From NCBI GenBank assembly GCA_964622645.1, contig CAZUSV010000001.1:5317-69316 (forward strand): DNA of 64,000 nucleotides. Reading direction: 5' to 3'. The notes below the pieces were generated by a model, which searched no databases, was not told the origin of the DNA, and was given only the letters and a program-made list of their open reading frames with translations. Of this stretch, positions 8,070-28,641 are shown piece after piece. The translations under genes and the position numbers were made by a program. The stretch is from an uncultured Anaerolineales bacterium (lineage in GTDB: Bacteria; Chloroflexota; Anaerolineae; Anaerolineales; UBA11858). How positions within the stretch are numbered: the stretch's first letter is position 1; the number at the start of each line of letters is the position of its first letter.

Positions 8070-9932
8070 ATGATCACCAAATACACTATTACTAACAACT
8101 TTGTTCTCTTATTGTTGATTGTCTTAGGTATTGGGGTGACTTTAATCGGATTTAGGAAAAACGATAATCCCCTCGAGAGAATGAATTGGATTATATATCC
8201 AACTTTTAATTTTTTTCTTGAGGCTGATTCTGTTCATCGGCCCTTCATGTCTACCGGTGATAGAATACATGAATCATGGATCGGCAAGAGTTATTGGTCT
8301 TCAAAGAATGAAAAGATAGATGGATTTGGAATGGGGTCATCCGCTCACTTGCGAGTTGGTGCGGATCAATTAGAAGCGGCGCTTGATGAATTGAAATCAA
8401 TGAATGTGCATTGGGTGAGAGAAGAAATCCCTTGGGCAGAAATCGAACCTTCGCCGGATTCTTTTCGCTGGGATTATTCTTTCGGAGAGACTCCTCGTGA
8501 TTTTTCCTTGCTCGTTTCTGAATTAGAAAAGCGAGATATCGAAATTGTGGCTCTCCTAGATTATGGCCCTATTTATGGAAATAAACCCATCCCTGAAGAT
8601 AAATTACTCATCCGCTGGGAGAATTATGTTCAAGCAGTGGTTATCAAATTTGGAGATCAGATAGATCATTGGGAGATCCAAAATGAGATGAATAGCCCTT
8701 TGTTTTGGGGGAAAGTTATATATACAGGGCAAAGCATAGATGCGCCTCCAGATCCCGAACTGTATACAAAAATGCTAGATCTTGCTTACACAGTAATCAA
8801 AAAACACAGTCCCGATGATGAGGTTGTCTTAGGTGGGTTAGTGGGTAATGTAAACGATAATTGTGAGACAAATCCTTTTGATTACCTTCATAAAGTACAT
8901 CAGGCTGGGGGTTGGAGTTCGTTTGACGTTATAGCAATACATCCTTATTGGGAAGCCAATCCACCAGAAGCTTTTATCAATCGTGGTCGGGGCCATTCTT
9001 CGGATTCAGGTGCTTGTCAATGGGATCAAACTGCAAATTACAATATGATCGGAGAGGCTCGTGCAATTCGCGACCTGGTCAATCAATTTGGTTCAAAACC
9101 TATTTGGGTCACAGAGGTAGGTTGGAGCCAAGGCTGGCTTGAAACATTAGCTGGTTATCGTGGCACAGATCCTGATTTTGCGGAGGCTGATTATCTAACC
9201 CGAACTTATATTCCGCTCCTTTCGGAACCAGGAGTGAACAAAGTGTTTTGGTATACACAATATGATGATCCTGGTATTTGGGATCAGTTTGCATTGGATT
9301 CGCCGGGCCAACAGGCTTTCCAGAATTTATCTTTCCTACTGACAGGGAGTACCTCACTTGGTCAATCCCAGGGGCAAGGAGATCAGGGCCTTCCAGGTGA
9401 CGATGATGTTTATGAATATCGTTTTGAAAAGGAGGGACAACTCATAATTGTGATTTGGAAATCGCGCGGAGGTGATGTCCCTCGAGATGTCACCATCAGC
9501 GATGTTGATGTTGATGAAATGCGCTTGTACAATCACGATGCTGATGACTTTTCTCCTGATGCAGGACGTGAGATTATTGTAGAAGATGGCAAATTGACCG
9601 TAAAATTGACAGAGCGTCCTGTAATCTTGATTTCTAGCGAGCTAAATTTGTTGGAACGCCTCCAATCAGATGCTCAGCGGAGAGTCGATGAATGGGTACA
9701 AGATCAAACTGAGAAAATATCTCGACAAATTGATGAATGGTGGCAGCGTCAGAGAGAAGAACTTGAACGACGGCTTACGGAATGGCTGCTATCCCAGTGG
9801 GAGAATTTTATTCAACAGCTTGAAGACGCTATCAACCGTTGGTTAGAAGAACAGTGCGCAAGTGTTGGCTTTGTTTTATTATTACCCCTGTTTGTATTAA
9901 TTGTCCGTCGAAAACAGAAGAAATCTGTGTAA
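8070..9932 (+). CDS. clan GH-A glycoside hydrolase (GH5/GH39-like) with N-terminal signal-anchor, C-terminal Trp-rich coiled coil and C-terminal TM anchor
   Basis: Acid/base motif HWEIQNEMN and nucleophile motif IWVTEVGW. N-terminal LLLLIVLGIGVTLIGF. C-terminal VDEWVQDQ...IDEWWQRQREELERRLTEWLLSQWENF...NRWLEEQ followed by GFVLLLPLFVLIVRRKQKK. Confidence 0.7.
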   Translation: MITKYTITNNFVLLLLIVLGIGVTLIGFRKNDNPLERMNWIIYPTFNFFLEADSVHRPFMSTGDRIHESWIGKSYWSSKNEKIDGFGMGSSAHLRVGADQLEAALDELKSMNVHWVREEIPWAEIEPSPDSFRWDYSFGETPRDFSLLVSELEKRDIEIVALLDYGPIYGNKPIPEDKLLIRWENYVQAVVIKFGDQIDHWEIQNEMNSPLFWGKVIYTGQSIDAPPDPELYTKMLDLAYTVIKKHSPDDEVVLGGLVGNVNDNCETNPFDYLHKVHQAGGWSSFDVIAIHPYWEANPPEAFINRGRGHSSDSGACQWDQTANYNMIGEARAIRDLVNQFGSKPIWVTEVGWSQGWLETLAGYRGTDPDFAEADYLTRTYIPLLSEPGVNKVFWYTQYDDPGIWDQFALDSPGQQAFQNLSFLLTGSTSLGQSQGQGDQGLPGDDDVYEYRFEKEGQLIIVIWKSRGGDVPRDVTISDVDVDEMRLYNHDADDFSPDAGREIIVEDGKLTVKLTERPVILISSELNLLERLQSDAQRRVDEWVQDQTEKISRQIDEWWQRQREELERRLTEWLLSQWENFIQQLEDAINRWLEEQCASVGFVLLLPLFVLIVRRKQKKSV

Positions 9933-10380
9933 TATAAAAATGCACTCTTTTTCTTGGATAATTGCTTGATGAAGTTGGATCGGTTTACCCGCATATTTAT
10001 TCCACAGCCCCGCCTTAACTTTGCCCTTCTCTTGCTCGCTTATGTTGTAGTTATCGGCTAAGGTTGCGCATTGCTCATTGTCCGTTCGCCAACAATATTT
10101 GCACACAGTATTCTGATTCTGTTGATATACAGCGGTGGAATGACAATGATTATGTTTGCCGTCGCCATGGGAAAAAGATGATAATTTGTACGAACGCAGT
10201 TAGAGCACCGTTGGGTAAGACAAGAGATCCAAGTGAGAGTGCATAGGGCGCAATTTTTTGTTTGGTTCGTCGCGCATCACTTGTTGTGGATATCTATTAG
10301 CAGCATTTCAATTTACTCTTTTCTGTTCATCTTTGGGATAAAGAATTGGATTCTTACTTTTTTAAGGCTCGGAATGTGGG

Positions 10381-10708
10381 TTGACTCCTTACACGGGGAG
10401 AAGTACAATTGTTCTAGTTCTGAATTGAGAGAAAAGAAGCTCTTTTAAATGAAGAAAGCTGCACAAGAAGTGCAGCAGTCACTCAGATTGTCTTATAAGT
10501 GGTTCTGCGGGGTTCTGTCCCCCTATTTTTACTTCGGGTGGTGTTCCCCTAGGGACGCATGGCGCACACCCCCGTCGGGACCGCCTGAAGTAAAAAACAT
10601 ATGACAGCCTGGTGTAACGTGAGTTGCTCCAGGCCTTTTTTGTTAAGAGACCGGGAGAATCTCGGTCATTTTTGATTCTCGGAGGTAATAAATGGAAAAA
10701 TCGATATG
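10381..10708 (+). repeat. copy 1 of a roughly 320-bp structured non-coding repeat (hairpin, 16-bp conserved stem with variable apex, two terminator-like hairpins)
   Basis: Collinear with 25822-26134. Hairpin GCTGCACAAGAAGTGCAGC. Stem arms TTTTTACTTCGGGTGG (10526-10541) and CCGCCTGAAGTAAAAA (10581-10596), 16 bp if two G-U pairs are allowed. GCCTGG...CCAGGC followed by a T-run. GACCGGGAGAATCTCGGTC (10649-10667) followed by a T-run. Confidence 0.8.
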
Positions 10709-10910
10709 GGAAACTCAGATACTTCTAAAAATGAATGAACCTGAGAACTTCGAGTTACCGGAGTCATATTCGTGTTGTAGGTAGAGAAGGTATCGTTTCA
10801 TCGAATGGATTATTCGATATTCGCGTTTTCAAGATGATCTTGCATAACCAAAAATGTGATACAATCAATGTGTCCACAAATGTGGAGCCATTTGTGTTTT
10901 GGAGGCTGAT

Positions 10911-11162
10911 ATGGTTACTGTAGGAGTACGAGAATTAAAACAGCAGGCCAGCGAGTTGATCCGCCAGGTACGTGAGGATGGCCAGGAAATTCAGGTAACT
11001 TACCGTGGTGAAGTTGTTGCACTGGTCGTACCTGTAAAAAGCCCACCAGAATCTGATAGTACAGCAGCCTGGGATCGCCTGGATGTGCTGGCGGCAGAGA
11101 TCGGTGCGCGCTGGCCAGAAGATGTCACCAGCGTCGAGGCTGTCGCCGAGGGGCGTTCATGA
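10911..11162 (+). CDS. type II antitoxin, Phd/YefM family
   Basis: MVTVGVRELKQQASELIRQVREDGQEIQVTYRGEVVALVVP. RBS GGAGG 5 nt upstream of ATG 10911. 4-nt overlap with the PIN gene. Inverted repeats CCACAAATGTGG / CATTTGTG at 10874-10896 are candidate operators. Confidence 0.75.
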   Translation: MVTVGVRELKQQASELIRQVREDGQEIQVTYRGEVVALVVPVKSPPESDSTAAWDRLDVLAAEIGARWPEDVTSVEAVAEGRS

Positions 11163-11575
11163 GTAAGTATCTCGTTGTCGATGCCAGCGTGTGGGTTGCC
11201 CGTCTGATTGCTCAAGATGCATTTCATGATCTCAGTCGTCGATGGTTGAATGTGCAGCGAGAACACGGGGTGCAATTTGTTGCTCCGACACTTTTGTTAG
11301 TCGAAGTCGCAGCTGCAATATCGCGCCGCACGGGGGACAGAGAGCTGGCAAAGCAGGCAGTGGAAGCATTGGAAGCTTTGGCTGACTTGCGTTTGGTGGA
11401 AATGGATCAGAGTGTTGTTCAATCCGCTGTTAATGCAGGCGCTGATCTGGGTGTGCGTGGCGCAGATGCATTTTATATCGCCATTGCCCAACAACTGTTC
11501 CTGCCTTTGGCTACTTTGGATAAGGATCAACTAGAACGTGCTAGTGACATGGTGGAGACAAAAACAATCGCCTGA
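11159..11575 (+). CDS. PIN-domain ribonuclease toxin (VapC-like)
   Basis: 138 aa. N-terminal LVVDASVWV (first acidic residue), internal LLLVEVA, C-terminal GADAFYIAIAQ...ATLDKD. Immediately follows the Phd-type antitoxin. Confidence 0.75.
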   Translation: MSKYLVVDASVWVARLIAQDAFHDLSRRWLNVQREHGVQFVAPTLLLVEVAAAISRRTGDRELAKQAVEALEALADLRLVEMDQSVVQSAVNAGADLGVRGADAFYIAIAQQLFLPLATLDKDQLERASDMVETKTIA

Positions 11576-11688: not shown

Positions 11689-11949
11689 ATGCTCTCTGAC
11701 ACACCCCCAGAAATTGAAGCAATGCAGTTGGATTTACTGCGTAGAGCACCTCCCTGGCGGAAGGCACATATGCTTGGTCAAATGTACCAAACAGCAAAGA
11801 ATCTTGCCATGGTCGGATTACGTCATCGTAATCCCGATGCTTCTGAAGCTTATCTGCGCCATCGCTTAGCTTTTATATTGCTTGGTCCTGAACTAGCCGA
11901 AAGCGCTTATGGAGCATTAGACGAAATGCTGTTGGTCGATGTTGACTGA
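11689..11949 (+). CDS. small hypothetical protein, putative partner of the downstream nucleotidyltransferase
   Basis: 86-aa ORF overlapping the next gene by 11 nt. No recognisable motif. Confidence 0.4.
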   Translation: MLSDTPPEIEAMQLDLLRRAPPWRKAHMLGQMYQTAKNLAMVGLRHRNPDASEAYLRHRLAFILLGPELAESAYGALDEMLLVDVD

Positions 11950-12511
11950 ACCAATTCTGGTCACGTTACGTGTTGTGGAAGTTCTTGAGCAATTGAAACT
12001 TCCATATATTATTGGTGGTTCCATGGCTACTGCAGTGCATGGTATTGCTCGAGCCACGATGGACGTGGATTTGCTTGTTGATATAAGAGTTGAGCAAGTG
12101 AATATATTAGCACAACAACTGGGGGATGATTTTTTTGCCGATGTGGAGATGATGAAGAATGCTATCAAGCAGGGCATGAGCTTCAATTTAATTCATAAAG
12201 AAACCATGTTCAAAGTGGATATATTCCCAAAAGCAGATCGTCCTTTTGATCAGTCGCAACTGAATCGAGGTGTTTCCCTTCCACTGGCTGTGGATCCCAT
12301 GCGCACTGCATATATTGCCAGTCCCGAGGACAACATTCTTGCAAAGCTTGAATGGTACCGTAAGGGGAGCGAGATATCCGATCGCCAATGGCAAGATGTG
12401 ATTAACGTCATCAAAATTCAAGGGGATCGGCTCGATCATGATTATTTACATCAATGGGCTTTACAGCTGGGAGTAGAAGATTTGCTTGCCAAGGCGTTAT
12501 CAGAAGGATGA
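11939..12511 (+). CDS. minimal nucleotidyltransferase-fold protein (MNT/AbiEii-like TA component)
   Basis: NTase signature GGSMATAVHGIARATMDVDLLV (G-G-S ... D-x-D). 190 aa. Confidence 0.6.
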   Translation: MLTEPILVTLRVVEVLEQLKLPYIIGGSMATAVHGIARATMDVDLLVDIRVEQVNILAQQLGDDFFADVEMMKNAIKQGMSFNLIHKETMFKVDIFPKADRPFDQSQLNRGVSLPLAVDPMRTAYIASPEDNILAKLEWYRKGSEISDRQWQDVINVIKIQGDRLDHDYLHQWALQLGVEDLLAKALSEG

Positions 12512-12537
12512 TCTCCTAATATAGCGAAAAGCTCTTT

Positions 12538-12657
12538 GGCGCACACCCTGTCGGGACTGCCTGAAGTAAATACACTACTACAGAAAGTTCGGAAGGGATG
12601 GAAGACCCTCTGAGCTTTTTTGTTTTAAGATCAAAGAATTTGATGATGATTCTGAGA
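12538..12657 (+). repeat. partial, diverged third copy of the structured repeat (3-prime half only)
   Basis: GGCGCACACCCTGTCGGGACTGCCTGAAGTAAA matches the right arm region of copies 1 and 2. It is followed by a different hairpin, then TTTTTTGTTTTAAGA and TGATTCTGAG, collinear with the copy 1 and 2 tails. Confidence 0.6.
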
Positions 12658-14398: not shown

Positions 14399-17300
14399 TT
14401 AAGGTCCCACCAATTGATATTCGAATGAAAATGTGCAATCTTCTTTATCCATTTGGTACGTCCCATGGGGGTTTTCTCGCCAATATTCAAGAGAACCTGC
14501 TTGAATAAAATACTCACTGATACATGAACTACCAGCATCAAAATAAAATACAGGGAAAGGGACTGTTATTTTTCCCCCTCCTCTTCGAAAAATATGTAAT
14601 TCTATTTTTAAATTGGGTTTCTCTTTATGCAAATTTACAATTAATAACGGTTTCTTTATTAGACCAAATTTAACCAGTTCGCTATAAGTAAATTCTCTAT
14701 TATGGTGGGATTTTATGCTGAGATCCACACCTTCAAGTAATTGATATCGCTCTTCATTCAAATTAATGAACATTTTTGAAATATCATCTTCCCAATCGGG
14801 AAATGTGATAGTATGCAAATTGATTTCAATAGCTAACTCGCATTTTTCAGGTGTTGATGTGAAAGGTGCACTTTTGGGGGAGATTTGATTATCCACAATT
14901 GCTTCAACCCAGAACGTCATCGTCGTCCCGCAAGGTGCTTTGTTAACATCTTCAATCACAAGATGTTGGGTGTCTTCAGGGATAATTGGCGTTAAAAGCT
15001 CTGCAAAGAGGCTGGGACCGCCATATTGGGCATGCTTGATGACCGAGAGACCATCCTCAGTTGCACTGTACTCAGCAGAGGGATTGATTTGACGATATAT
15101 GCGGAACCCCTGAAATACACGTCCTTCGAGATATTCTTCGGTATAAACGTAACCTTGAGGGTCATTTGTCCATAGCCAATCCCAAGAAAGGAACAAATCA
15201 GTTCCCATAGGAGTGAGACTAAGTCCATAGGGTGCATGTAAATCCTGATTTTCAGCAATAGATGCGGGGCTTTTATACTCTGGGTAGCATAGTGCATTTG
15301 AGCAAGTGTCTTCCTGAACTTCTTGAAACCTGTTTCCAGGTCGATAACAAACCTGAATGCGTCCTCTTTCCTCTTTCGGAGCACATCCTACAGGGCCAAT
15401 ATCAACAGTGATTGGCGAAGTTTGGCTCGGGGTGAAAACATCTTGCAGCCAGGTGTTGGTTTCCGGATCGCAAACCGAGTAAACCACCTGGTTTGCTACC
15501 GTTGAGAAATCTAATTTGAAGAGGCCGCCAACCCTGTATAAATTCAAAACATCTGGTAGTTCTACATCTGGGCTTATTGGTTTATCCACAATAAGCGGAG
15601 TGCAAAATTGTTTTGGCTCACTTAGCCCTGCTTCCAAAACAGCGCCGTTTTCAGATGTATAGCTGTGCAAGTCGCCGTCTGGGTTAGCCCTGTTTAGAAA
15701 ATCCTGGAAGCGGCCGACCGGGATTAGTTTATTCGCTAGCCAGCCATAACAATCCATCTCAACGGGGACATCTTCATTATCAGGCGCATTAATGGATAAC
15801 GGTGAGCTGAACATGGAAAGAGGGAAGACATTCTCGCGTCCGGGCAAATGACGCAAAAACCTTCCGACTTGGGTTGGTACGCGGTTGTATAAGCCATGAT
15901 GACCAATTTTCTGGTAACAATAAATGTCAGAAACGCCCATTGAATCCTCCGAGAGCATAAGATCCCCAAAATTGCTGACAATAGTATTCTTGCTTTCAGA
16001 TGCTTTTTGGGCAGGGCCGGTTTTGCAGAAAGGGGTGGCGTATTCCTGGCTGAGATGATTGGAGCGGAATCCCAGGGGGCTTTCGGCCTCAACCACGAGG
16101 GTATATTTTTCCCCCTCGATGAAGGTCTCCGGCGGCAATTCAAATTCGGTCTGATCAGGAGCAGTCTCTCCTACTTCCATCAATCCAACTTCGGTAAAGG
16201 CGCCTAAGGGGGGAATATAGGAAATAATATAGCGGCGGAAATCATCCCCAAGCGTGTTCCAGGTCAGTTTCACCGGGTCGCAGCCTCCTCCAGCAATTAC
16301 CAGGCCTTCGGGTGTGGGTGGTGTATCCACATCGCTGCCTATTTGCGTGTTCTCATCAGCGATGACTGTGAAGCCTTCGGTGGGGTCGGGGAGCGAAATG
16401 ACTTCGGGTTCAAAAACCAACTCAGGGACGACAATGGTTTCTCCTTCCGACAGGGCTTGATCAGCCTGGAAACCAGGATTGGCGTCAACGACGTCTTGGA
16501 CATCCACACCTACTTCATTGGCAATGGTTTGGATGGTTTCCCCCTCTTCGGCTAGCTCGATGGTTGCTGCAAGCACCTGCCCAGGCTCGGGATCGACAAC
16601 CATGAAGCGCAGCACGCTGGATTGTCCCATCTCTCCCTGGGTGTTATAAGCGCGTGCCACCAGGGTGTGCCAGCCTAATTCGTGGGGTACCAGGCTGGGT
16701 GTGAAGCTGAAGGTGTCGGAATAGCCGCTGGCGCTGTTTTCATATTGGACCAGGATCTCTCCATCCACCACCAGCTCGCCGCGCGTGACCCCATCCGCAT
16801 CGCGGGCGGTGGCGATCAGGGTCATTTGCCACTCACGCAGGACTTCATCGCCTGTATTTTGGGAGGTATTCAATTCAACAATGGGACCTGGGGCGCGGTA
16901 ATAGGTCACCGCTTGTGATTCTGGTTTCAAAAGTAATTGGTAAGCAAAATAGGCTCCGGCAAACAGGGCGGCAAACGCCAGCAATCCTGCCGTGATCCCT
17001 ATGGCGAGCCTGCCCTTGCGGAGTCTCCGGCGGGCTTGTTTTCTCGCCTTTCTGGTGCTGCGCCGGGGAAAGACGGCCGGTTGTGCCGGTACCTTCGAGC
17101 TGCTGCGGCCAACAGCCGGGGCGCCCGCTTGAACCTTCATCCCCAATGAGAGGCCGAGTTGTACAACGCTCTTTGGGCCCAAACGGGTGGGCTGTGTGAT
17201 GCGCTGGCCGTTGACAAAAGTGCCGTTGGTCGATCTAAGATCCTCAATCCACACCTGACCGGCCTGGACGGTGATGCGGGCGTGGTTGCGCGAAAGCGAT

Positions 17301-17815
17301 TCATCCAGAATGACAACCTCATTGCTCGGATCACGCCCGATGCTCTGGCTGCCCTCGTACAGCTCGAATGTTTGACCCTGATAAAGCCCTTCCAACACGG
17401 AAAGATGGAAGGCGGGTGGGGAAGCTGCCGGAGGATGAATCGCCGCGGTCGGCTGAGGAAGCGGTGTGGCCAATGGCTGATTGACCTGCACTTGCACAGA
17501 GGGTCCAATTTGCAGATTATCGCCCGGATTAAGCCAGGTCGCCTGTGTGATGCACTGGCCGTTGACAAAAGTGCCGTTCGACGAACCCAAATCCTGGATC
17601 CAGACTCCCTCTGGCTGAACCTGGAGCAAAGCATGTCGGCTGGAAATCGTGGGATCATTGAGTTGAATCTGGTTATCCTTATCACGCCCAATGAAATGCT
17701 GACCAGGCTCTAAAGTGAATGTCTGATTGGTCTGTGAACCGCTCTGAACGGTCAGGGTATAGAATCCCTGGTTGATATTCGAAGCTACCATTGTATCTGG
17801 CATGATTTCCTCCAA
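14399..17815 (-). CDS. tandem-FHA, single-pass membrane protein with large extracytoplasmic region (LysM, Ig/FN3-like modules)
   Basis: Two FHA cores (IGRDKDNQIQLNDPTISSRHALL...SSNGTFVNG and IGRDPSNEVVILDESLSRNHARI...STNGTFVNG). Basic stretch then TM IGITAGLLAFAALFAGAYFAY. LysM-like GETIQTIANEVGVDVQDVVDANP. Confidence 0.75.
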   Translation of the reverse strand: MEEIMPDTMVASNINQGFYTLTVQSGSQTNQTFTLEPGQHFIGRDKDNQIQLNDPTISSRHALLQVQPEGVWIQDLGSSNGTFVNGQCITQATWLNPGDNLQIGPSVQVQVNQPLATPLPQPTAAIHPPAASPPAFHLSVLEGLYQGQTFELYEGSQSIGRDPSNEVVILDESLSRNHARITVQAGQVWIEDLRSTNGTFVNGQRITQPTRLGPKSVVQLGLSLGMKVQAGAPAVGRSSSKVPAQPAVFPRRSTRKARKQARRRLRKGRLAIGITAGLLAFAALFAGAYFAYQLLLKPESQAVTYYRAPGPIVELNTSQNTGDEVLREWQMTLIATARDADGVTRGELVVDGEILVQYENSASGYSDTFSFTPSLVPHELGWHTLVARAYNTQGEMGQSSVLRFMVVDPEPGQVLAATIELAEEGETIQTIANEVGVDVQDVVDANPGFQADQALSEGETIVVPELVFEPEVISLPDPTEGFTVIADENTQIGSDVDTPPTPEGLVIAGGGCDPVKLTWNTLGDDFRRYIISYIPPLGAFTEVGLMEVGETAPDQTEFELPPETFIEGEKYTLVVEAESPLGFRSNHLSQEYATPFCKTGPAQKASESKNTIVSNFGDLMLSEDSMGVSDIYCYQKIGHHGLYNRVPTQVGRFLRHLPGRENVFPLSMFSSPLSINAPDNEDVPVEMDCYGWLANKLIPVGRFQDFLNRANPDGDLHSYTSENGAVLEAGLSEPKQFCTPLIVDKPISPDVELPDVLNLYRVGGLFKLDFSTVANQVVYSVCDPETNTWLQDVFTPSQTSPITVDIGPVGCAPKEERGRIQVCYRPGNRFQEVQEDTCSNALCYPEYKSPASIAENQDLHAPYGLSLTPMGTDLFLSWDWLWTNDPQGYVYTEEYLEGRVFQGFRIYRQINPSAEYSATEDGLSVIKHAQYGGPSLFAELLTPIIPEDTQHLVIEDVNKAPCGTTMTFWVEAIVDNQISPKSAPFTSTPEKCELAIEINLHTITFPDWEDDISKMFINLNEERYQLLEGVDLSIKSHHNREFTYSELVKFGLIKKPLLIVNLHKEKPNLKIELHIFRRGGGKITVPFPVFYFDAGSSCISEYFIQAGSLEYWRENPHGTYQMDKEDCTFSFEYQLVGP

Positions 17816-18223: not shown

Positions 18224-20132
18224 TTACTTGAAGGACAACCGTATAAGCATTATCGCCGCACTTCCATGTTCCAGTAACAACTGCGCCATTTTTTGTTCGT
18301 TTTCAGGAATATAAATATCTCCATTATTGATATAGATATCATCATTTGTCGTGGATATAAGCTCATATTCGATGCGATTTGCATCTCCATCTGGATCGAA
18401 AAACTCAAAATCTTTATAAATGATTAATGAACCCGAATCAGTATCTTCCCTGAGATTTACATTTGTGATAACCGGTCTGGATTGTTCTGATTGGTCGATC
18501 CCGTGTCGGGTGTTGAAAATGTAACCGTAGGTTGCCAGGAAAGCCCCCAGACATTTTCTATCGAAATAACCTGTTTCAAGTTTTCTCCATTCACATCGAT
18601 TATCCATATTCCCCCCCCTATCAGAATCATAAAAAGCGATCCACTTGCTGTCTGGCGACCATTGAGGGCAACCCCCAGAAATGAGTTTCTTTTCCTCATG
18701 TGGATTTGATGGGTTCAATAGAGTGATCTCTCCAGTTGTTAAGTAAGCAACCCAACGGCCGTCTGGTGACCACTCCGGGCAAATGGCTCCTCGATCGGTG
18801 AGGCTTACTCTGTTTGAACCATCAGCATTCATCATTTCGATAACACCCCCGTTTTTCAAAAATATGATTTTTTCCCCATCAGGAGACCATGAAGGAAATG
18901 ATCCCGAAATGTCATCTTCTGTTAGTTTTACAGGACCAGACCCGTCAATATTAGCTTTCCAGATACTATCTGGATACGTAGCAGATGATGCAAAGGTGAT
19001 TTCTTGGCCATTTTTCGATACATCCACGTGATAGATTAGCCCGTTGAATATTTTCCTACGGAACATACTTAGGTTTTCTAATTTCAGGGTCTTTATTCCC
19101 CCCCCATTCACCAAATACAATTTCACCTGTTGGCAACCAAGCATTGGTTTTAATATCACTACTTGTCTGAAGTTCAGATTTAATCAACTGTTTCCCACTT
19201 CCGTCAATATTTACAGAATTTAGATTTTGTTTGTCGTTAACTTCCTCCCAGAAATATATTTTTCCGGTTCCCCCACCGATGATTACTACGGGCGTTTGAG
19301 TTAGTGTGATCTTTGGTGTGTTTGTTAGTTCCATTGTAGATGTAGGATTGGGGGTGAAGGTTGTTGTCACCTCCTCTTGTAAATTTTCATCCAATATTGC
19401 CACTGCTTGTGTCGCCTGCGAAATCTGTGGTTCCGGTTTTTTGGGGGTTGGAAATACAAGTTCTTGAGTAGGAATAGTTTTCGGAGTCAATATAGATGGT
19501 AGATACAAAATTCCCACAACGATAATGGCCATCAAACCTAATACGCCTGCAGATATTCCTAGCCAGAGGATGATATTCTTTTCCTGGGGTTCTGCAGGTT
19601 GCCATAGCGATTGACTATCCTGGGGAGGCATCATTGGCGGCGCGCTTGCAAATCCGGGAGCGGGACCCGGGGTTGGTTCGATCGTAGGGGGTGGGGATTG
19701 GGTTGGAGGTGGTCCTGTAGGAGGCCGGATGGTCGGATGAGGACCAGATGGTGGACTTTCTGTTGGTATCACAGTCTGAATAGACTCTCTGGCCTTCGGG
19801 GTGATTGCTTTGGTAGAAGGATCGCGTGCCTGAATTATTACCAAGATGGAACCGCCAATTTGGAGAGTATCACCAGGATAAAGCCGTACAGGCGTGGTGA
19901 TCTTTTGGGCATTTACATAGGTTCCATTTGTCGAATCTAGATCCTGTATCCACAACTCAGCAGATAGAGCATTGAGAAGAGCATGTTTGTCCGATACAGA
20001 TGGGTCATCGAATATGATTTGGTTATCAATATTCCTGCCGATGGAATGGGTTCCGATACTCAGTTCCAAGCTTTGGTCGCTTAGTGCCCCGCTCTGGATA
20101 GTGAATATCCATTGTGATAAAGGCTTATTCAT
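18224..20132 (-). pseudogene. FHA - Pro-rich linker - TM - TolB-like (PD40) beta-propeller protein, interrupted by a frameshift in a G8 (plus-strand C8, 19098-19105) homopolymer
   Basis: ORF 19056-20132 carries the FHA (IGRNIDNQIIFDDPSVSDKHALL...STNGTYVN), linker and TM. ORF 18224-19159 carries the PD40 repeats (SWSPDGEKIIF, EWSPDGRWVAY, QWSPDSKWIAF). Reading GGTGAATGGGGGGGGAAT with one G fewer joins ...GEWGG to IKTLKLENLSMFRRK in a single frame. Confidence 0.7.
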
Positions 20133-24548: not shown

Positions 24549-25821
24549 TATCAATTGCTGACCTTCAGACAAAAGATCGGACAACTATACAAGAAAGATG
24601 GGAACCTCTAATCTCCGGGTAGCAGACCCGAAAGGAGTGAAAAGGTTCCCATGGATAAGTTTACCCGCATTTCAGAATTTACAGACCAACTCTTTGATGA
24701 TCAAAAGACATCGCAACAAGCCAGTGAAATCATTGAAGGCATATTGGAGACACGCTCACCACGGATCAGCGATATCGCATCCAGGATGAAGGGTAGTGAA
24801 GCAGGTTGCTACAAAAGGGTGCAGCGATTTCTGCATCAGAATGATCCTTGCCAAGAACTGAAGCTGTTATTCAACGAAGGAGTGAGTTTGTGATTGGAGA
24901 TCCCACGGAAATTGAGCGTCCAAATGCCAATAAGACCAAGTATGTTGGCACGCTGAAGGATGGGCAGACCAAAGGCTTTTGCGTGTTGACCTTGGCAACA
25001 CCAGTGCGAGGCAGAGCGATCCCATTTCATTTTCTAACCTATTCGTCTCGAACGTTTGAAGACCAGATAAGTTCAAGGAACCTGGAGCATTTCAAAGCCA
25101 TTCAAGAAATCAAGACTTTGATTGGACGGAGACCGATCGTTTTTGACAGGGAGTTTTCCTACTTGATGTTATTGAAGAGCTTGGTCGCCAGTGACGTTCA
25201 GTTCGTGATCCGCTTGAACACGGGCAGTAACCCACCAAACTTCTACTACGATGCTGATCAAAAACAACAGCTACGTCTGGCCATCGCGCCACTCAACAAG
25301 CCCCAAATCTATCGCCAGGTGTACTACATGGGAGAAGTGCCTTTGAATGTGATTGGTATTTGGCAGTATGGTTTCAAATCGCCCATCTGGATTATGACCA
25401 ACCTGGAACCAGAAGATGCATTGAAGCTCTATTTCAAGCGTATGAAGATTGAAATTTGCTTCCGTGATCTCAAAAGCCTGCTCAAGATCAACAAGATCAT
25501 GAACAAATCACAAACCTTACTCAACAAAATGATCGCTATGGTGATGTTGGCCTATTCCATCAGCATCGTCATTGGCGAAGCAATCCGTGATGTGCAGTAT
25601 GCTGGCGTTTCCCCAAAAGACTTCAATTTATTGAACGTGCCAGATGTTGAGAAACGCTCGCGTTGGCATTTGTTTTCAGGCCCATTCCTGTTCATCAAAC
25701 AGCGTTACTCCTTGCCTGATACCGTCTTAGCTACTATTGTTGAGATTGCCTTGCTTGTCTTCACCAATTTGATCTTTGCTTTCAATGTCCGAACTCTTGT
25801 CCCAACATGAGTCAATTGATA
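24549..25821 (+). mobile_element. IS4-family-like insertion sequence (1273 bp) with imperfect terminal inverted repeats of about 36 nt
   Basis: IRL TATCAATTGCTGACCTTCAGACAAAAGATCGGACA (from 24549) against the reverse complement of the right end, TATCAATTGACTCATGTTGGGACAAGAGTTCGGACA (ending 25821). The first 9 nt are identical, then there is a 14/16 block. No obvious target-site duplication. Confidence 0.65.
24651..25810 (+). CDS. DDE transposase (IS4 family), split over two frames with a -1 shift needed near 24880-24890
   Basis: The N-terminal 80 aa (24651-24893) end ...LKLLFNEGVSL*. The rest (24848-25810) carries VIGDPTEIER (D), IVFDREFS (D) and YFKRMKIEICFRDLKS (E, Y-x2-R-x3-E-x6-K). No classical slippery heptamer is visible. 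Confidence 0.7.
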
Positions 25822-26134
25822 TTGACTCCTTACACGGGGAGAAGTACAATTGTTCTAGTTTCGACTTGAAAGAAAAGAAGTACTTTTAAATGAAGAACGC
25901 TGCACAAAAAGTGCAGCAGTCACTCTAGATGATCATATAAATGGTTTCGAAGGGTTCTGTCCCCCCATTTTTACTTCGGGTGCGCGCAGCGCCACCCCCG
26001 TCGGGACCGCCTGAAGTAAAAAACATATGACAGCCTGGTGTAACGTGCGTTGCTCCAGGCTTTTTTTGTTAAGAGACCGGGAGAATCTCGGTCTTTTTTG
26101 ATTCTCGGAAGTGAAACATGGAAAAATCGATATG
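25822..26134 (+). repeat. copy 2 of the roughly 320-bp structured repeat, abutting the IS right end
   Basis: Collinear with 10381-10708. The same basal stem and both terminator hairpins are present (GACCGGGAGAATCTCGGTC 26075-26093 plus T6). The apical segment between the stem arms is shorter and different. Confidence 0.8.
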
Positions 26135-26157
26135 TGTATGATCGATGAGTTATCCCG

Positions 26158-26185
26158 TTGAGAATCTCCAAATACATGCTATAAT
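26158..26185 (+). promoter_or_regulatory. candidate sigma-70-type promoter of the second TA pair
   Basis: TTGAGA (26158-26163), 16-nt spacer, TATAAT (26180-26185). RBS TAAGGAG before ATG 26234. Confidence 0.4.
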
Positions 26186-26233
26186 ATATATTGAAATATA
26201 TATTCACGAATAAATGCTGATAAGGAGTATGCC

Positions 26234-26506
26234 ATGCAACTGATTGTTGGTGTAACCGAATTGCAGCGCCGTTTCCGTTCGTTCTTCGATCAGGTAGTTG
26301 GCAAACGCACGCCGATCGTGCTGACCCGCGGTTCACGCCCTGAAGCAGCCTTGATCCCCTATGAGGATTATTTGCGCTTCCAGCAAATGCAAGAGAGCGA
26401 AGTTTTGGCCCGTTTCGATCAGGTCTGGAACCGGCTGGATGAACTCAACGCGGCATACAGTGATGATGAAATCGCAACTGATATCGAAGCCGCTCGCCAG
26501 GGATAG
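26234..26506 (+). CDS. type II antitoxin, Phd/YefM family
   Basis: MQLIVGVTELQRRFRSFFDQVVGKRTPIVLTRGSRPEAALIPYEDYLRF; 90 aa. The PIN gene starts 4 nt after its stop. Confidence 0.75.
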   Translation: MQLIVGVTELQRRFRSFFDQVVGKRTPIVLTRGSRPEAALIPYEDYLRFQQMQESEVLARFDQVWNRLDELNAAYSDDEIATDIEAARQG

Positions 26507-26509
26507 CTA

Positions 26510-26920
26510 ATGCGAGCCGTTATTGATACGGGTATATTCGTCAGCGCCTTGATCCGCAAGCGGGGACCCCTCGGTTCTATTCTGGGTGCCTTGCGCGATG
26601 GACGCTTTACAGCTATTTATACTACCGACATTATGGTAGAAATTATTGACGTCCTTGGGCGGGACAAATTTCGGGTCAAGTATCACATCGAATCTGATGA
26701 CGTTTCGGCCCTGATTCACTTGATTCGATTGCGCGGAGAGTTGGTCATTCCCAGCGAAAAAGTGACAGCCTGCCGCGACCCGAAAGACGACAAATTTCTG
26801 GAAGCTGCGCTGGCAGGCAGCGCTGATTGCATCGTTTCCTGCGATGCAGATCTACTCGATATGGAATCCTTTGACGATATTCCCATCATGCGCCCAGCAG
26901 AATTTAGTGCCCATATATGA
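26510..26920 (+). CDS. PIN-domain toxin (PIN_3 / TIGR00305-like)
   Basis: MRAVIDTGIFVSALI ... ACRDPKDDKFLEAALAGSADCIVSCDADLL. A different PIN subfamily from 11159-11575. Confidence 0.75.
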   Translation: MRAVIDTGIFVSALIRKRGPLGSILGALRDGRFTAIYTTDIMVEIIDVLGRDKFRVKYHIESDDVSALIHLIRLRGELVIPSEKVTACRDPKDDKFLEAALAGSADCIVSCDADLLDMESFDDIPIMRPAEFSAHI

Positions 26921-27078
26921 CTGCTGCGAGGATTCCAAAGGTGAATTCTAAGAGTTTTGAGTTGATTCCTTATACCTGTTCAGGGTATTCATTACAATAA
27001 TCCCAGGAAGGCTTCTTCCGTAATGGCTGAACACCAGCATAAGGCAAAAAACCGTAGAGATCTGGCGAGGAAATCACC

Positions 27079-28641
27079 ATGAAATGGACAATCTCGATTG
27101 GCCGCATCCGGGAGACAGAGATCCAATTACATCTCACCTTGATCCTGGTGGTCATCTATGTTCTGGTCGTTGGACAACCTGGTAGCGTGGGGACGGCCTT
27201 GTGGACCATCGGCACCATTTTAGCGCTGTTTGCTTGCATCTTTTTGCATGAATTGGGGCATACCCTGGTCTCATGGGCTTATGGCATCAAGGTCAGCAGC
27301 ATCATCCTGTGGCCGCTGGGCGGCTTTGCCGTTTTGGAACGCCAACCGGAAAAGCCGCTTGCTTCCATGCTGATTGCTGGCGTAGGACCGCTGGTCAATC
27401 TCGTACTGGCTGGCCTGGTGCTGGTAGTACTATTTAGCGGGTCATTATTCCAATTTCTCCCTGAGATAAATTTGCGCTCACCCCTGGGCGGTTTCCTGGC
27501 GATCCTGGTGATTATGAACGGCATTTTGGCCTTGTTCAATCTGTTCCCCATCTACCCCCTGGATGGCGGACGCGTGCTGCATGCGTTGTTCCAGATGGTT
27601 ATGGGGGCAGAGCGTGCAGACACCGCAATGCTGATCATCACTCTGCCATTGATCTTTGTGATGGCCGTCTATGCCATCCTGAGTGGAGAATTCCTACTGT
27701 TACTCACCAGTCTGCTGCTGTTGATGGGCGCCAGCACGCTCAACCTGAAATTGAGGCGTTGGGTCTCCCTGGCTTTCACAGCCCTCACCAATCGGGGCTC
27801 CTATTGCCTGCTTAGACGCGATTACGATAAAGCCATTACCCACTACAGCCGTTCGATCAAACGCTGGCCGTGGAATATTAATCTATATTTCACACGCGGC
27901 ATTGCCTATCTGGTTATTCAGGAAATCGATAAAGCCCAGGAGGATGCCGAAATGGCTTTCAAACTGGCTCCTGAGAACCCGCTGGCCTGGATCCTGAAGG
28001 GAGAAATATACGAAGCCAACGATGATCTCGAACAAGCGCTGGCCAGCTACCAACGTGCTGCGGAACTCAAACCAGGCTGGTACCTGCCCTATGCAGACTG
28101 TGCTGGTGTGCATATGGCCAGGGGAGATTTTTCCAAAGCTCTGGCTGACCTGGAGCAATCTTTCAAACTCAACCCCAGGTCCGATCTTGTGCATGTTTTG
28201 CGCTCCATGGTTCGCTACCGTCTGGGCGACCTGGATGGTTCTCAAAAAGATGGCGAGAAAGCCATCAAGTTGTTGCCGGAAAATTCACTTGTCTTTCCAG
28301 GGCCATTCCTGGTGCTGATGAAAGATCAGGTCGACTGGGCCGAAGGATATTATCACCAGGCGATGCAGATGTTGCCCAATTCATCGCTGCCCCATCAAGG
28401 TCTGGCAGACGCCTATGGCGTCAATGGGGAGTATGAAAAGGCTTTGATCGAGTGGGATCTGGCGATCCAAAAATCGCCCAAGCGAGCTGCCCTTTTCCTG
28501 GGTCGGGGGAGTGCCTACCTGCAGTTGGGAGAACGAGAGCAGGCGGGGGCTGAATTCCGTAAAGTGCTTTCTTTGAGCAAAAAAGCCCACATCCGACGGC
28601 AGACTGAGGTACAACTGCAAGCCCTGGCAGAAGAGACCTAA
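27079..28641 (+). CDS. M50 (site-2 protease family) zinc metalloprotease fused to a C-terminal TPR domain
   Basis: HExxH in IFLHELGHTLV. Second M50 motif NLFPIYPLDGGRVL. Several TM helices. The C-terminal half consists of TPR-like repeats (AITHYSRSIK..., ALASYQRAAELKP..., ALIEWDLAIQKSP...). Confidence 0.8.
   Translation: MKWTISIGRIRETEIQLHLTLILVVIYVLVVGQPGSVGTALWTIGTILALFACIFLHELGHTLVSWAYGIKVSSIILWPLGGFAVLERQPEKPLASMLIAGVGPLVNLVLAGLVLVVLFSGSLFQFLPEINLRSPLGGFLAILVIMNGILALFNLFPIYPLDGGRVLHALFQMVMGAERADTAMLIITLPLIFVMAVYAILSGEFLLLLTSLLLLMGASTLNLKLRRWVSLAFTALTNRGSYCLLRRDYDKAITHYSRSIKRWPWNINLYFTRGIAYLVIQEIDKAQEDAEMAFKLAPENPLAWILKGEIYEANDDLEQALASYQRAAELKPGWYLPYADCAGVHMARGDFSKALADLEQSFKLNPRSDLVHVLRSMVRYRLGDLDGSQKDGEKAIKLLPENSLVFPGPFLVLMKDQVDWAEGYYHQAMQMLPNSSLPHQGLADAYGVNGEYEKALIEWDLAIQKSPKRAALFLGRGSAYLQLGEREQAGAEFRKVLSLSKKAHIRRQTEVQLQALAEET

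Follow-up and report, generated by a model that had tools for sequence, protein, structure and literature searches.

The window analyzed here, 64,000 nucleotides (nt) of an uncultured Anaerolineales genome (assembly GCA_964622645.1, contig CAZUSV010000001.1, positions 5,317 to 69,316), contains two full copies and one partial copy of a repeat of about 320 bp. This repeat is probably a small-RNA gene that doubles as an attachment (att) site, with decayed insertions lying behind it. A 24-nt stretch within the 3′ strand of the predicted RNA's long stem, hereafter the core (CCCGTCGGGACCGCCTGAAGTAA), is a recombination breakpoint shared by many unrelated flanks. The 5′ two-thirds of the repeat looks, from its sequence, like a self-contained noncoding RNA gene with its own promoter. 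The last ~125 bp is not part of the RNA and consists of element-derived terminators, a ribosome-binding site (RBS) and the start of a truncated excisionase-family gene. The toxin-antitoxin (TA) genes found beyond the repeat are most likely leftovers of decayed insertions and not partners of the RNA. The first-pass annotation of this DNA had offered two options, an RNA element associated with TA cassettes or a recombination element at cassette boundaries. Each option is supported for one part of the repeat, the RNA gene for its 5′ two-thirds and the boundary for the core breakpoint, and the link to TA function is not supported.

The full copies lie at 10381-10708 (copy 1) and 25822-26134 (copy 2). 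A repeat search and BLAST recovered them as the collinear and near-identical pair that had been reported, with 87% identity over 329 alignment columns. Each is a three-part mosaic composed of a promoter plus ~190 nt of structured sequence, the 24-nt core and a 3′ segment that we call the B arm; block by block, the two copies are 92% identical in the 5′ part, 84% in the middle and 95% in the B arm. The core of copy 1, CCCGTCGGGACCGCCTGAAGTAA(A), is at 10571-10594 (plus strand) and overlaps the 3′ strand of the long stem, and that of copy 2 was located by a core pattern scan at 25997-26020 (plus strand). The diverged 3′ half that had been said to end the first TA array is a partial copy (copy 3, ~12537-12627), which matched a profile of the repeat with E = 7e-16. 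A 21-nt core pattern gave three matches in the window versus none in 100 shuffles. The feature is genuine and no chance repeat, and the recurrence of the arrangement in several assemblies made independently from different samples shows that it did not arise through misassembly of this one contig. A larger duplication was also rejected, in agreement with the earlier view that this is no simple segmental duplication: the DNA 5′ of copy 1 aligned locally to the DNA 5′ of the insertion sequence (IS) abutting copy 2 with a score of 18, the shuffle mean being 18.9.

Scanning public genomes and metagenomes with the core pattern gave two more full-length copies outside this population. One (L011) is in a Black Sea Anaerolineales metagenome-assembled genome (MAG) and is only ~71-75% identical to the window repeat, and the other (L012) is in a MAG labelled Desulfobacterales. 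More than 20 additional loci have the 3′ part only. Among 185,579 representative genomes, only 3 contained the exact core. No match was obtained when the repeat unit was compared by blastn with plasmid and phage collections, nor in three pattern scans of viral contigs. We also sought an empty site for the window locus, and this was set aside, as all contigs encoding the 620-amino-acid (aa) flanking protein share one arrangement; for the 555-aa protein encoded downstream no record was found.

Contigs encoding homologues of the excisionase-family protein were compared by means of an nhmmer profile built from the four full copies (copies 1 and 2, L011 and L012). All of the excisionase-linked contigs matched this profile only from position 182-186 on, which is the first base of the core. 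The core is common to every arm combination in the other loci, where three unrelated left arms and two right arms are joined to it. Left arm LA1 is the 5′ part of the RNA (~190 bp), LA2, located 3′ of a Thg1-like gene, has TAGATCGCGGGATCTAAT as its end, and LA3 is a ~190-nt conserved segment containing a palindrome and adjoining a divergent cI-like, FtsK-like or AP2-domain gene. Right arm A has a single terminator and right arm B has two terminators plus an excisionase-family gene. The combinations found at the core are LA1+A, LA1+B, LA2+A, LA2+B and LA3+B.

One chromosomal locus was found in both states. Contig L011, in which the RNA gene is intact and a DnaB_C-like gene comes next, and contig L015, which has LA2 instead (only 38 nt of this arm were available), are 100.000% identical over 2331 nt. 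The identity stops exactly at the first C of the core and the sequences are unrelated past that point. Further contigs of this locus comprise four independent contigs with LA1 (L051-54), one with LA2 (L055) and one that starts at the core (L056), and hence the locus occurs intact in L011 and L051-54 and with a different core junction in L015 and L055. Contigs beginning exactly at the core (L013, L036-38 and L056, with L024 beginning one base earlier) are expected from an assembly-graph fork at an att site. The final k-mers usually used by assemblers are longer than 24 nt, and given the shortness of the core we infer that chimeric joins through it are unlikely.

The four full copies are similar from a −35 box up to a terminator, with unrelated sequence on either side. 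The promoter, TTGACT-17-TACAAT, is at 10381-10409 in copy 1 (plus strand), where it begins at the first base of the repeat and gave a 10/12 match in the promoter scan, and at 25822-25850 in copy 2 (plus strand, same scan). Its sigma-70-type hexamers and their spacing are identical in copies 1 and 2, L011 and L012. With its start placed from the −10 box and its end at the T-run of terminator 1, the predicted small RNA of copy 1 is ~225 nt long (10416-10641, plus strand); that of copy 2, as judged from the alignment and the fold, would be ~210 nt (25857-26067, plus strand). When folded as plus-strand RNA, copy 1 gave −110.7 kcal/mol (z = −4.15 versus shuffles) and copy 2 gave −104.6 (z = −4.73), and the minus strand of copy 1 folded more poorly (−91.5, z = −2.81).

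The secondary structure is based on thermodynamics and conservation. The small hairpin noted in the first-pass annotation is GCTGCAC-loop-GTGCAGC (GCTGCACAAGAAGTGCAGC, 10458-10476, plus strand). It has seven pairs, one of which shows a compensatory G-C to A-U change in L011 and one of which is a G-U pair in L012. The reported 16-bp stem was likewise recovered. Its 5′ strand, TTTTTACTTCGGGTGG (10526-10541, plus strand), pairs with 10581-10596, 14 of 15 pairs are invariant, and the two G-U pairs are possible only on the plus strand. The apical segment is variable as described, with a 15-nt indel between copies 1 and 2. Note that the 3′ strand of this stem is under a second constraint, as it doubles as the recombination core.

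The RNA region of the repeat is noncoding as judged by its reading frames. Coding potential was considered and rejected, as no open reading frame (ORF) is conserved: the 51-aa ORF of copy 1 (10449-10604) is interrupted by an early stop in copy 2, and in L012 its ATG is replaced by ACG. The frame of the "conserved peptide tail" proposed earlier does exist, but it covers the −35 and −10 boxes and the first transcribed bases, lying mostly 5′ of the predicted start. Moreover, the sequence upstream of it is unrelated in all four contexts, the L011 stop codon is shifted out of frame, and in copy 2 the frame opens within the terminal repeat of the IS element. The repeat begins at the −35 box and not, as had been suggested, inside the 3′ end of a lost gene. 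An Rfam scan had also been proposed. Rfam 15 at gathering level gave no match in the whole window and permissive scans of copy 1 and L011 returned only noise (E ≥ 0.9), so that no family was found; ARAGORN detected no tRNA and no tmRNA in the window.

Past the core, copies 1 and 2 have two terminators, GGAGG and then ATGGAAAAATCGATATG. The B arm of copy 1 (10595-10719, plus strand) contains terminator 1 at 10607-10641, terminator 2 at 10649-10673 and the RBS GGAGG at 10681-10685, followed by an ATG at 10692 that opens an excisionase-family gene remnant of about 9 codons (plus strand). The B arm of copy 2 (26021-26134, plus strand) has two terminators, an RBS and the first ~6 codons of the excisionase-family gene. 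Both of the consecutive terminator-like hairpins with T-runs that had been described are thus present. After these remnants of ~9 and ~6 codons, the DNA in the window is unrelated. The copy 1 B arm is 93% identical to that of L013 and 91% identical to that of L022, and the copy 2 B arm, besides its 95% identity to copy 1, is 91-94% identical to those of L022 and L013. In L022 the B-arm ATG opens an intact 85-aa HTH_17 protein (P0004), in L013 the excisionase-family ORF is also truncated, ending after 35 codons, and L014 has a B arm of greater divergence, 5′ of a gene for an 82-aa excisionase homologue. The excisionase-family helix-turn-helix (HTH) gene matches TIGR01764 (2e-11) and PF12728.

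The excisionase-linked element was followed by two protein-anchored walks, up to 19.7 kb. An intact B arm always lies 5′ of a conjugative-type element (excisionase-FtsK-ParA-Rep), in which the B arm is followed by the excisionase-family HTH gene, a gene encoding a 363-aa protein, FtsK_SpoIIIE, ParA and then others. The element also encodes a 704-aa protein with a DnaA_N domain and an 833-aa HerA-like ATPase, and it holds IS3 and IS21 fragments.

Several features of the left arms and of this element family were observed in passing. In L022-L029, a homologue of Thg1-like tRNA-His guanylyltransferase (PF04446, 3e-32; for example L026:606-1343) is encoded directly 5′ of the LA2-core-B junction, and two large histidine kinases are encoded 3′ of the excisionase-family gene, an unusual cargo or context for this element family. 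The LA3 arm is kept at L014:1146-1322, L057:355-531 and L030:1923-2123, and the gene beyond it varies (FtsK-like, AP2-domain or cI-like). At the start of LA3 is a perfect palindrome, AAAAAGCGCCTTGC-N-GCAAGGCGCT, with the sequence of an intrinsic terminator when read on the minus strand. An operator is one possible role for it, and another is as the end of a second small RNA whose transcription would lead away from the core. In L030:1-5083, the cI-like and the excisionase-family genes are each followed by near-identical genes for a 209/210-aa membrane protein and an FtsK-like protein, so that the LA3-core-B segment is flanked by an inverted duplication of these gene sets.

In L011, L012 and copy 3 the core is followed by one terminator (AGAAAGTTCGGAAGGGA...), the A arm, which is homologous in all three, and the sequence after it differs each time. 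Copy 3 is a 5′-truncated gene (12537-12627, plus strand) composed of 10 nt of the apical region, the core (12547-12570, two mismatches) and the single A-arm terminator. It matches profile positions 176-262, and in the terminator it shares 80-86% identity with L011, L012 and L015. Downstream of the A arm in L011 is the DnaB_C-like module, which has a separate left boundary ~50 nt ahead of its ATG and is also found at sites that have no core. Assignment of the A arm to that module was rejected, as the homology of the related modules L039-L049, which have no core, starts only ~50 nt before the ATG. Given the occurrence of the A-arm terminator in three contexts and the module's own boundary, the A arm is taken as the native 3′ end of the RNA gene.

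The DnaB_C-like module itself is a compact, conserved set of eight genes and was seen in L011, L015 and L039-L056 (for example L051:10001-15336). It starts with the DnaB_C-like ATPase, of which more than 380 homologues at ≥60% identity are found across Anaerolineae, and continues with genes for 160-, 120- and 147-aa proteins (with a weak PrgI match for the L046 homologue), a 310-aa protein, an M23 peptidase, a 362-aa winged HTH protein and an HTH_17 protein. Since its genomic contexts differ, it is probably a separate mobile or transfer module.

Together these data suggest the following scheme. The RNA gene would be a gene of marine Anaerolineales, with a sigma-70 promoter, a structured RNA of about 210-225 nt and an intrinsic terminator. 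A family of integrative conjugative-type elements would use a site within its 3′ region as bacterial attachment site (attB), with recombination, presumably mediated by an integrase, taking place inside the 24-nt core, the strand that closes the RNA's long stem. The incoming element would bring its own core followed by two terminators and the excisionase-family gene. Because it carries a replacement 3′ segment plus terminator, integration would rebuild a complete and terminated RNA gene, as happens at tRNA and tmRNA genes. Copies 1 and 2 would then be attL-type junctions (LA1-core-B), in which the host promoter and the 5′ part of the RNA are joined through the core to the 3′ arm of an element. 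The identity of the B arms (95%) as compared with that of the RNA bodies (84-92%) fits a separate origin of the B arms. The elements behind both copies would have decayed, leaving 6-9 excisionase codons and then unrelated DNA, and the two unrelated Phd/PIN modules would be surviving self-stabilizing cargo that resisted loss. The cores at 10571-10594 and 12547-12570 flank a 1.9-kb stretch, and copy 3, with its 10 extra nt of LA1, may close this stretch as an island remnant that holds a Phd/PIN module and a second, unclassified two-gene pair.

Several observations weigh against this scheme. No tyrosine or serine integrase or resolvase was found by Pfam in the ≤19.7 kb of element sequence, in which the elements are incomplete, and no integrase appears in the Pfam lists near the window copies. 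The window contains no clean attR (element left arm plus core plus A arm): copy 3, which keeps 10 nt of LA1 left of its core, is a truncated gene and no simple attR, and copy 2 is without any downstream partner. The excisionase truncation points of copies 1 and 2 are only 7-12 nt apart (copy 2 being truncated earlier), for which independent random deletions are no easy explanation. On the RNA side, only four independent full-length copies are known, and covariation is weak. The covariance check proposed by the first-pass annotation did give compensatory changes, at 3 of 46 pairs, but the long stem is invariant, and four distinct sequences give no statistical power. Finally, the presence of two full copies within 15 kb, each beside mobile DNA, also fits an RNA that is carried by mobile elements.

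The last point leads to an alternative in which the RNA is not a host gene but either the outward end of some further mobile element or itself a small mobile unit. LA1 would then be one more element arm and the RNA would regulate or assist the element life cycle (immunity, copy control or excision control). We consider this unlikely. Every full copy is indeed beside mobile or accessory DNA (the IS4-family element and TA genes in the window, HicAB and an IS630-like ORF in L012 and the movable DnaB_C-like module in L011), the window copies are just 15 kb apart, and the exact core is as rare among representative genomes as given above. However, nothing 5′ of the −35 box is common to any two of the four copies, which would leave LA1 as a unit of only ~190 bp with no associated gene. 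Moreover, LA1 sits between a MalT-like regulator and the DnaB_C-like module in L011 and in L051-54, four independent assemblies, and the element-type loci (LA2 and LA3) never hold it. A further possibility is a non-functional repeat, either the relic of a larger duplication or an entity resembling a miniature inverted-repeat transposable element, with incidental hairpins. The weak covariation would fit, as would the closeness of copies 1 and 2, which at 87% identity could share structure by descent. This is nevertheless quite improbable, as L011, despite its identity of only ~71-75%, has retained the hexamers of the promoter with their spacing, the hairpin (which shows a compensatory change), the GGGTTCTGTC motif, the two strands of the long stem and a terminator. 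In addition, neither terminal inverted repeats nor target-site duplications are present, and the flanks are not part of a larger duplication.

The TA genes call for separate consideration. Copy 1 is followed by genes for a Phd antitoxin and a PIN toxin (10899-11575, plus strand; PF02604, 3e-8, and PF01850, 6.5e-14) and copy 2 by genes for a Phd antitoxin and a PIN_3 toxin (26234-26920, plus strand; PF02604, 1.6e-10, and PF13470, 2.6e-19), and thus the two pairs do belong to different PIN subfamilies as had been stated. Between the first module and copy 3 is a pair of genes encoding 86-aa and 190-aa proteins (11689-12511, plus strand), which overlap by 11 nt in a TA-like layout and gave no Pfam or NCBIfam match. 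The repeat could be read as a structured RNA, leader or 3′ untranslated region element that works with the Phd/PIN cassettes, for example in control of their expression: both full window copies lie 100-190 nt 5′ of a Phd/PIN module that shares their orientation, a TA-like gene pair precedes the partial copy, and in L012 a HicAB pair is directly upstream of the repeat. We regard such a function as very improbable. Two terminators and a truncated excisionase start separate the RNA from the TA genes, both TA modules have upstream regions of their own (that of copy 2 with a promoter-like site at 26158-26185, an 11/12 match), and neither the two modules nor the stretches between module and repeat are related to each other. 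Outside this population, no TA module is found 3′ of the repeat or of its 3′ part at any locus. The L011 copy lies 5′ of the DnaB_C-like module, the L012 copy lies 5′ of the IS630-like ORF, and the more than 20 loci with the 3′ part lie 5′ of an excisionase-family gene that in no case is followed by a TA module. The TA-linked function proposed in the first-pass annotation is therefore not borne out.

An integron-like or cassette-boundary element, in which the imperfect palindrome with its variable center acts as a folded single-stranded DNA site resembling attC, seems hardly credible. Its attractions are a stem that is kept while the length of its center varies, short cassettes between repeats and a breakpoint in the 3′ strand of the stem. 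Yet the stem mismatches are G-U pairs only in plus-strand RNA, and in single-stranded DNA they would be G-T (plus) or C-A (minus). The partner sites LA2 and LA3 are without the 5′ stem strand, so the palindrome is not needed for recombination, and the Pfam lists covering about 35 kb around the copies include no integron integrase. The integron attC is about 57-141 bp, has R''/L''-L'/R' boxes and is served by an IntI integrase and attI. An integron cassette was accordingly rejected, the unit here being 320 bp with a promoter and terminators and having partner sites that lack the 5′ half of the palindrome.

The closest parallels to a small-RNA gene serving as attB are found at tRNA and tmRNA (ssrA) genes. 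There, as would be the case here, the breakpoint falls on a stem strand toward the 3′ end of a gene for a structured RNA, and the element supplies a replacement 3′ segment plus terminator. Both kinds of locus come intact as well as altered, and in both a partial 3′ copy would remain as a direct repeat and decayed island remnants would pile up behind the gene. Unlike those sites, the target here is neither tRNA nor tmRNA according to ARAGORN, has no Rfam family and is present in at least two copies within 15 kb, and no integrase is seen. In actinomycete integrative conjugative elements (AICEs) such as pSAM2 and SLP1, xis and int adjoin attP, and the elements are composed of Xis, FtsK/SpoIIIE-type Tra, Rep and Int modules. 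The B-arm elements resemble these in encoding an excisionase-family HTH protein, an FtsK/SpoIIIE-type translocase, a replication-initiator-like protein and ParA, and in appearing to insert in the 3′ end of an RNA gene. They differ in that no Int gene was found in them (the elements being incomplete), in their Chloroflexota host and non-tRNA target and in also carrying the 833-aa HerA/VirB4-like ATPase.

The bridge and seek RNAs of the IS110/IS1111 families were also compared. The likeness is that of a structured predicted noncoding RNA of ~200 nt with a strong promoter, located at a recombination junction and having one segment complementary to the recombination site. In the present case, however, the complementary segment is in an intramolecular stem, and no DEDD/IS110-type recombinase is encoded 3′ of the RNA, where the ORFs are Phd/PIN, DnaB_C-like or IS630-like. 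An IS110-family bridge RNA was rejected, the only nearby transposase being of the IS4 family (DDE_Tnp_1) and upstream. A looser variant, in which the RNA is an active recombination partner that guides or gates events at the core in the manner of a bridge RNA, is suggested by the invariant 5′ stem strand UUUUUACUUCGGGUGG, which is complementary to the 24-nt core common to all partners. It would fit the finding of no conventional integrase in about 20 kb of element sequence. We give this variant only a very slim chance.

Returning to the small-RNA gene as attB, integration into sRNA genes has precedents in enterobacteria, where ryeB and ryeE are known prophage integration targets beside tRNA and tmRNA genes (PMC3603311). 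Those sites (ryeB/sdsR and ryeE/cyaR; PMC3603311) resemble ours in that a stand-alone small-RNA gene with a stable hairpin is an integration hotspot. They are unlike ours in that our host is of the Chloroflexota (Anaerolineales), there is no sequence relationship, the elements here are of the FtsK/ParA/Rep conjugative type and not phages, and the predicted RNA is longer (~210-225 nt). Integration at the 3′ end of RNA genes is a well-known class of mechanism; what is new is the RNA, the host lineage and the element family. If the reading is correct, poorly studied uncultured marine Anaerolineales would have an unannotated and apparently strongly promoted RNA family of ~210-225 nt, and the targets of 3′-end integration by mobile elements, tRNA and tmRNA genes and a few sRNA genes of enterobacteria, would be joined by an RNA gene of Chloroflexota that is used by conjugative elements of the FtsK type. 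The core would also provide a 24-nt marker for delimiting islands in these MAGs, the assemblies of which break exactly there. A note of caution is that island decay, with addictive modules left in place, would better account for a TA association that had looked functional. The role of the RNA itself is the part worth experimental follow-up.

The remaining observations concern the surroundings of the copies. Copy 2 is bounded on its left by an IS4-family insertion sequence (24549-25821, plus strand; DDE_Tnp_1 and NCBIfam IS4 models) that lies flush against its −35 box. This element has imperfect terminal inverted repeats of ~35 nt (TATCAATTG...GATCGGACA) and no obvious target-site duplication, and its transposase is frameshifted and split into two frames (24651-24893 and 24848-25810). 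A 3.5-kb contig, L007 (ENA ERZ23498639), when compared with window positions 8746-10708 and 25822-27670, was seen to join the copy 1 upstream flank and body straight to the TA module behind copy 2. It can be read as a population variant that lost 15.4 kb between the direct repeats by homologous recombination or as an assembly chimera through the 320-bp repeat. Farther away, a family of 69-nt direct repeats (17186-17254, 17537-17605 and 19887-19955) lies within large minus-strand genes. As these genes carry multiple FHA domains in the Pfam lists, the 69-nt units are probably repeated FHA-domain coding segments.

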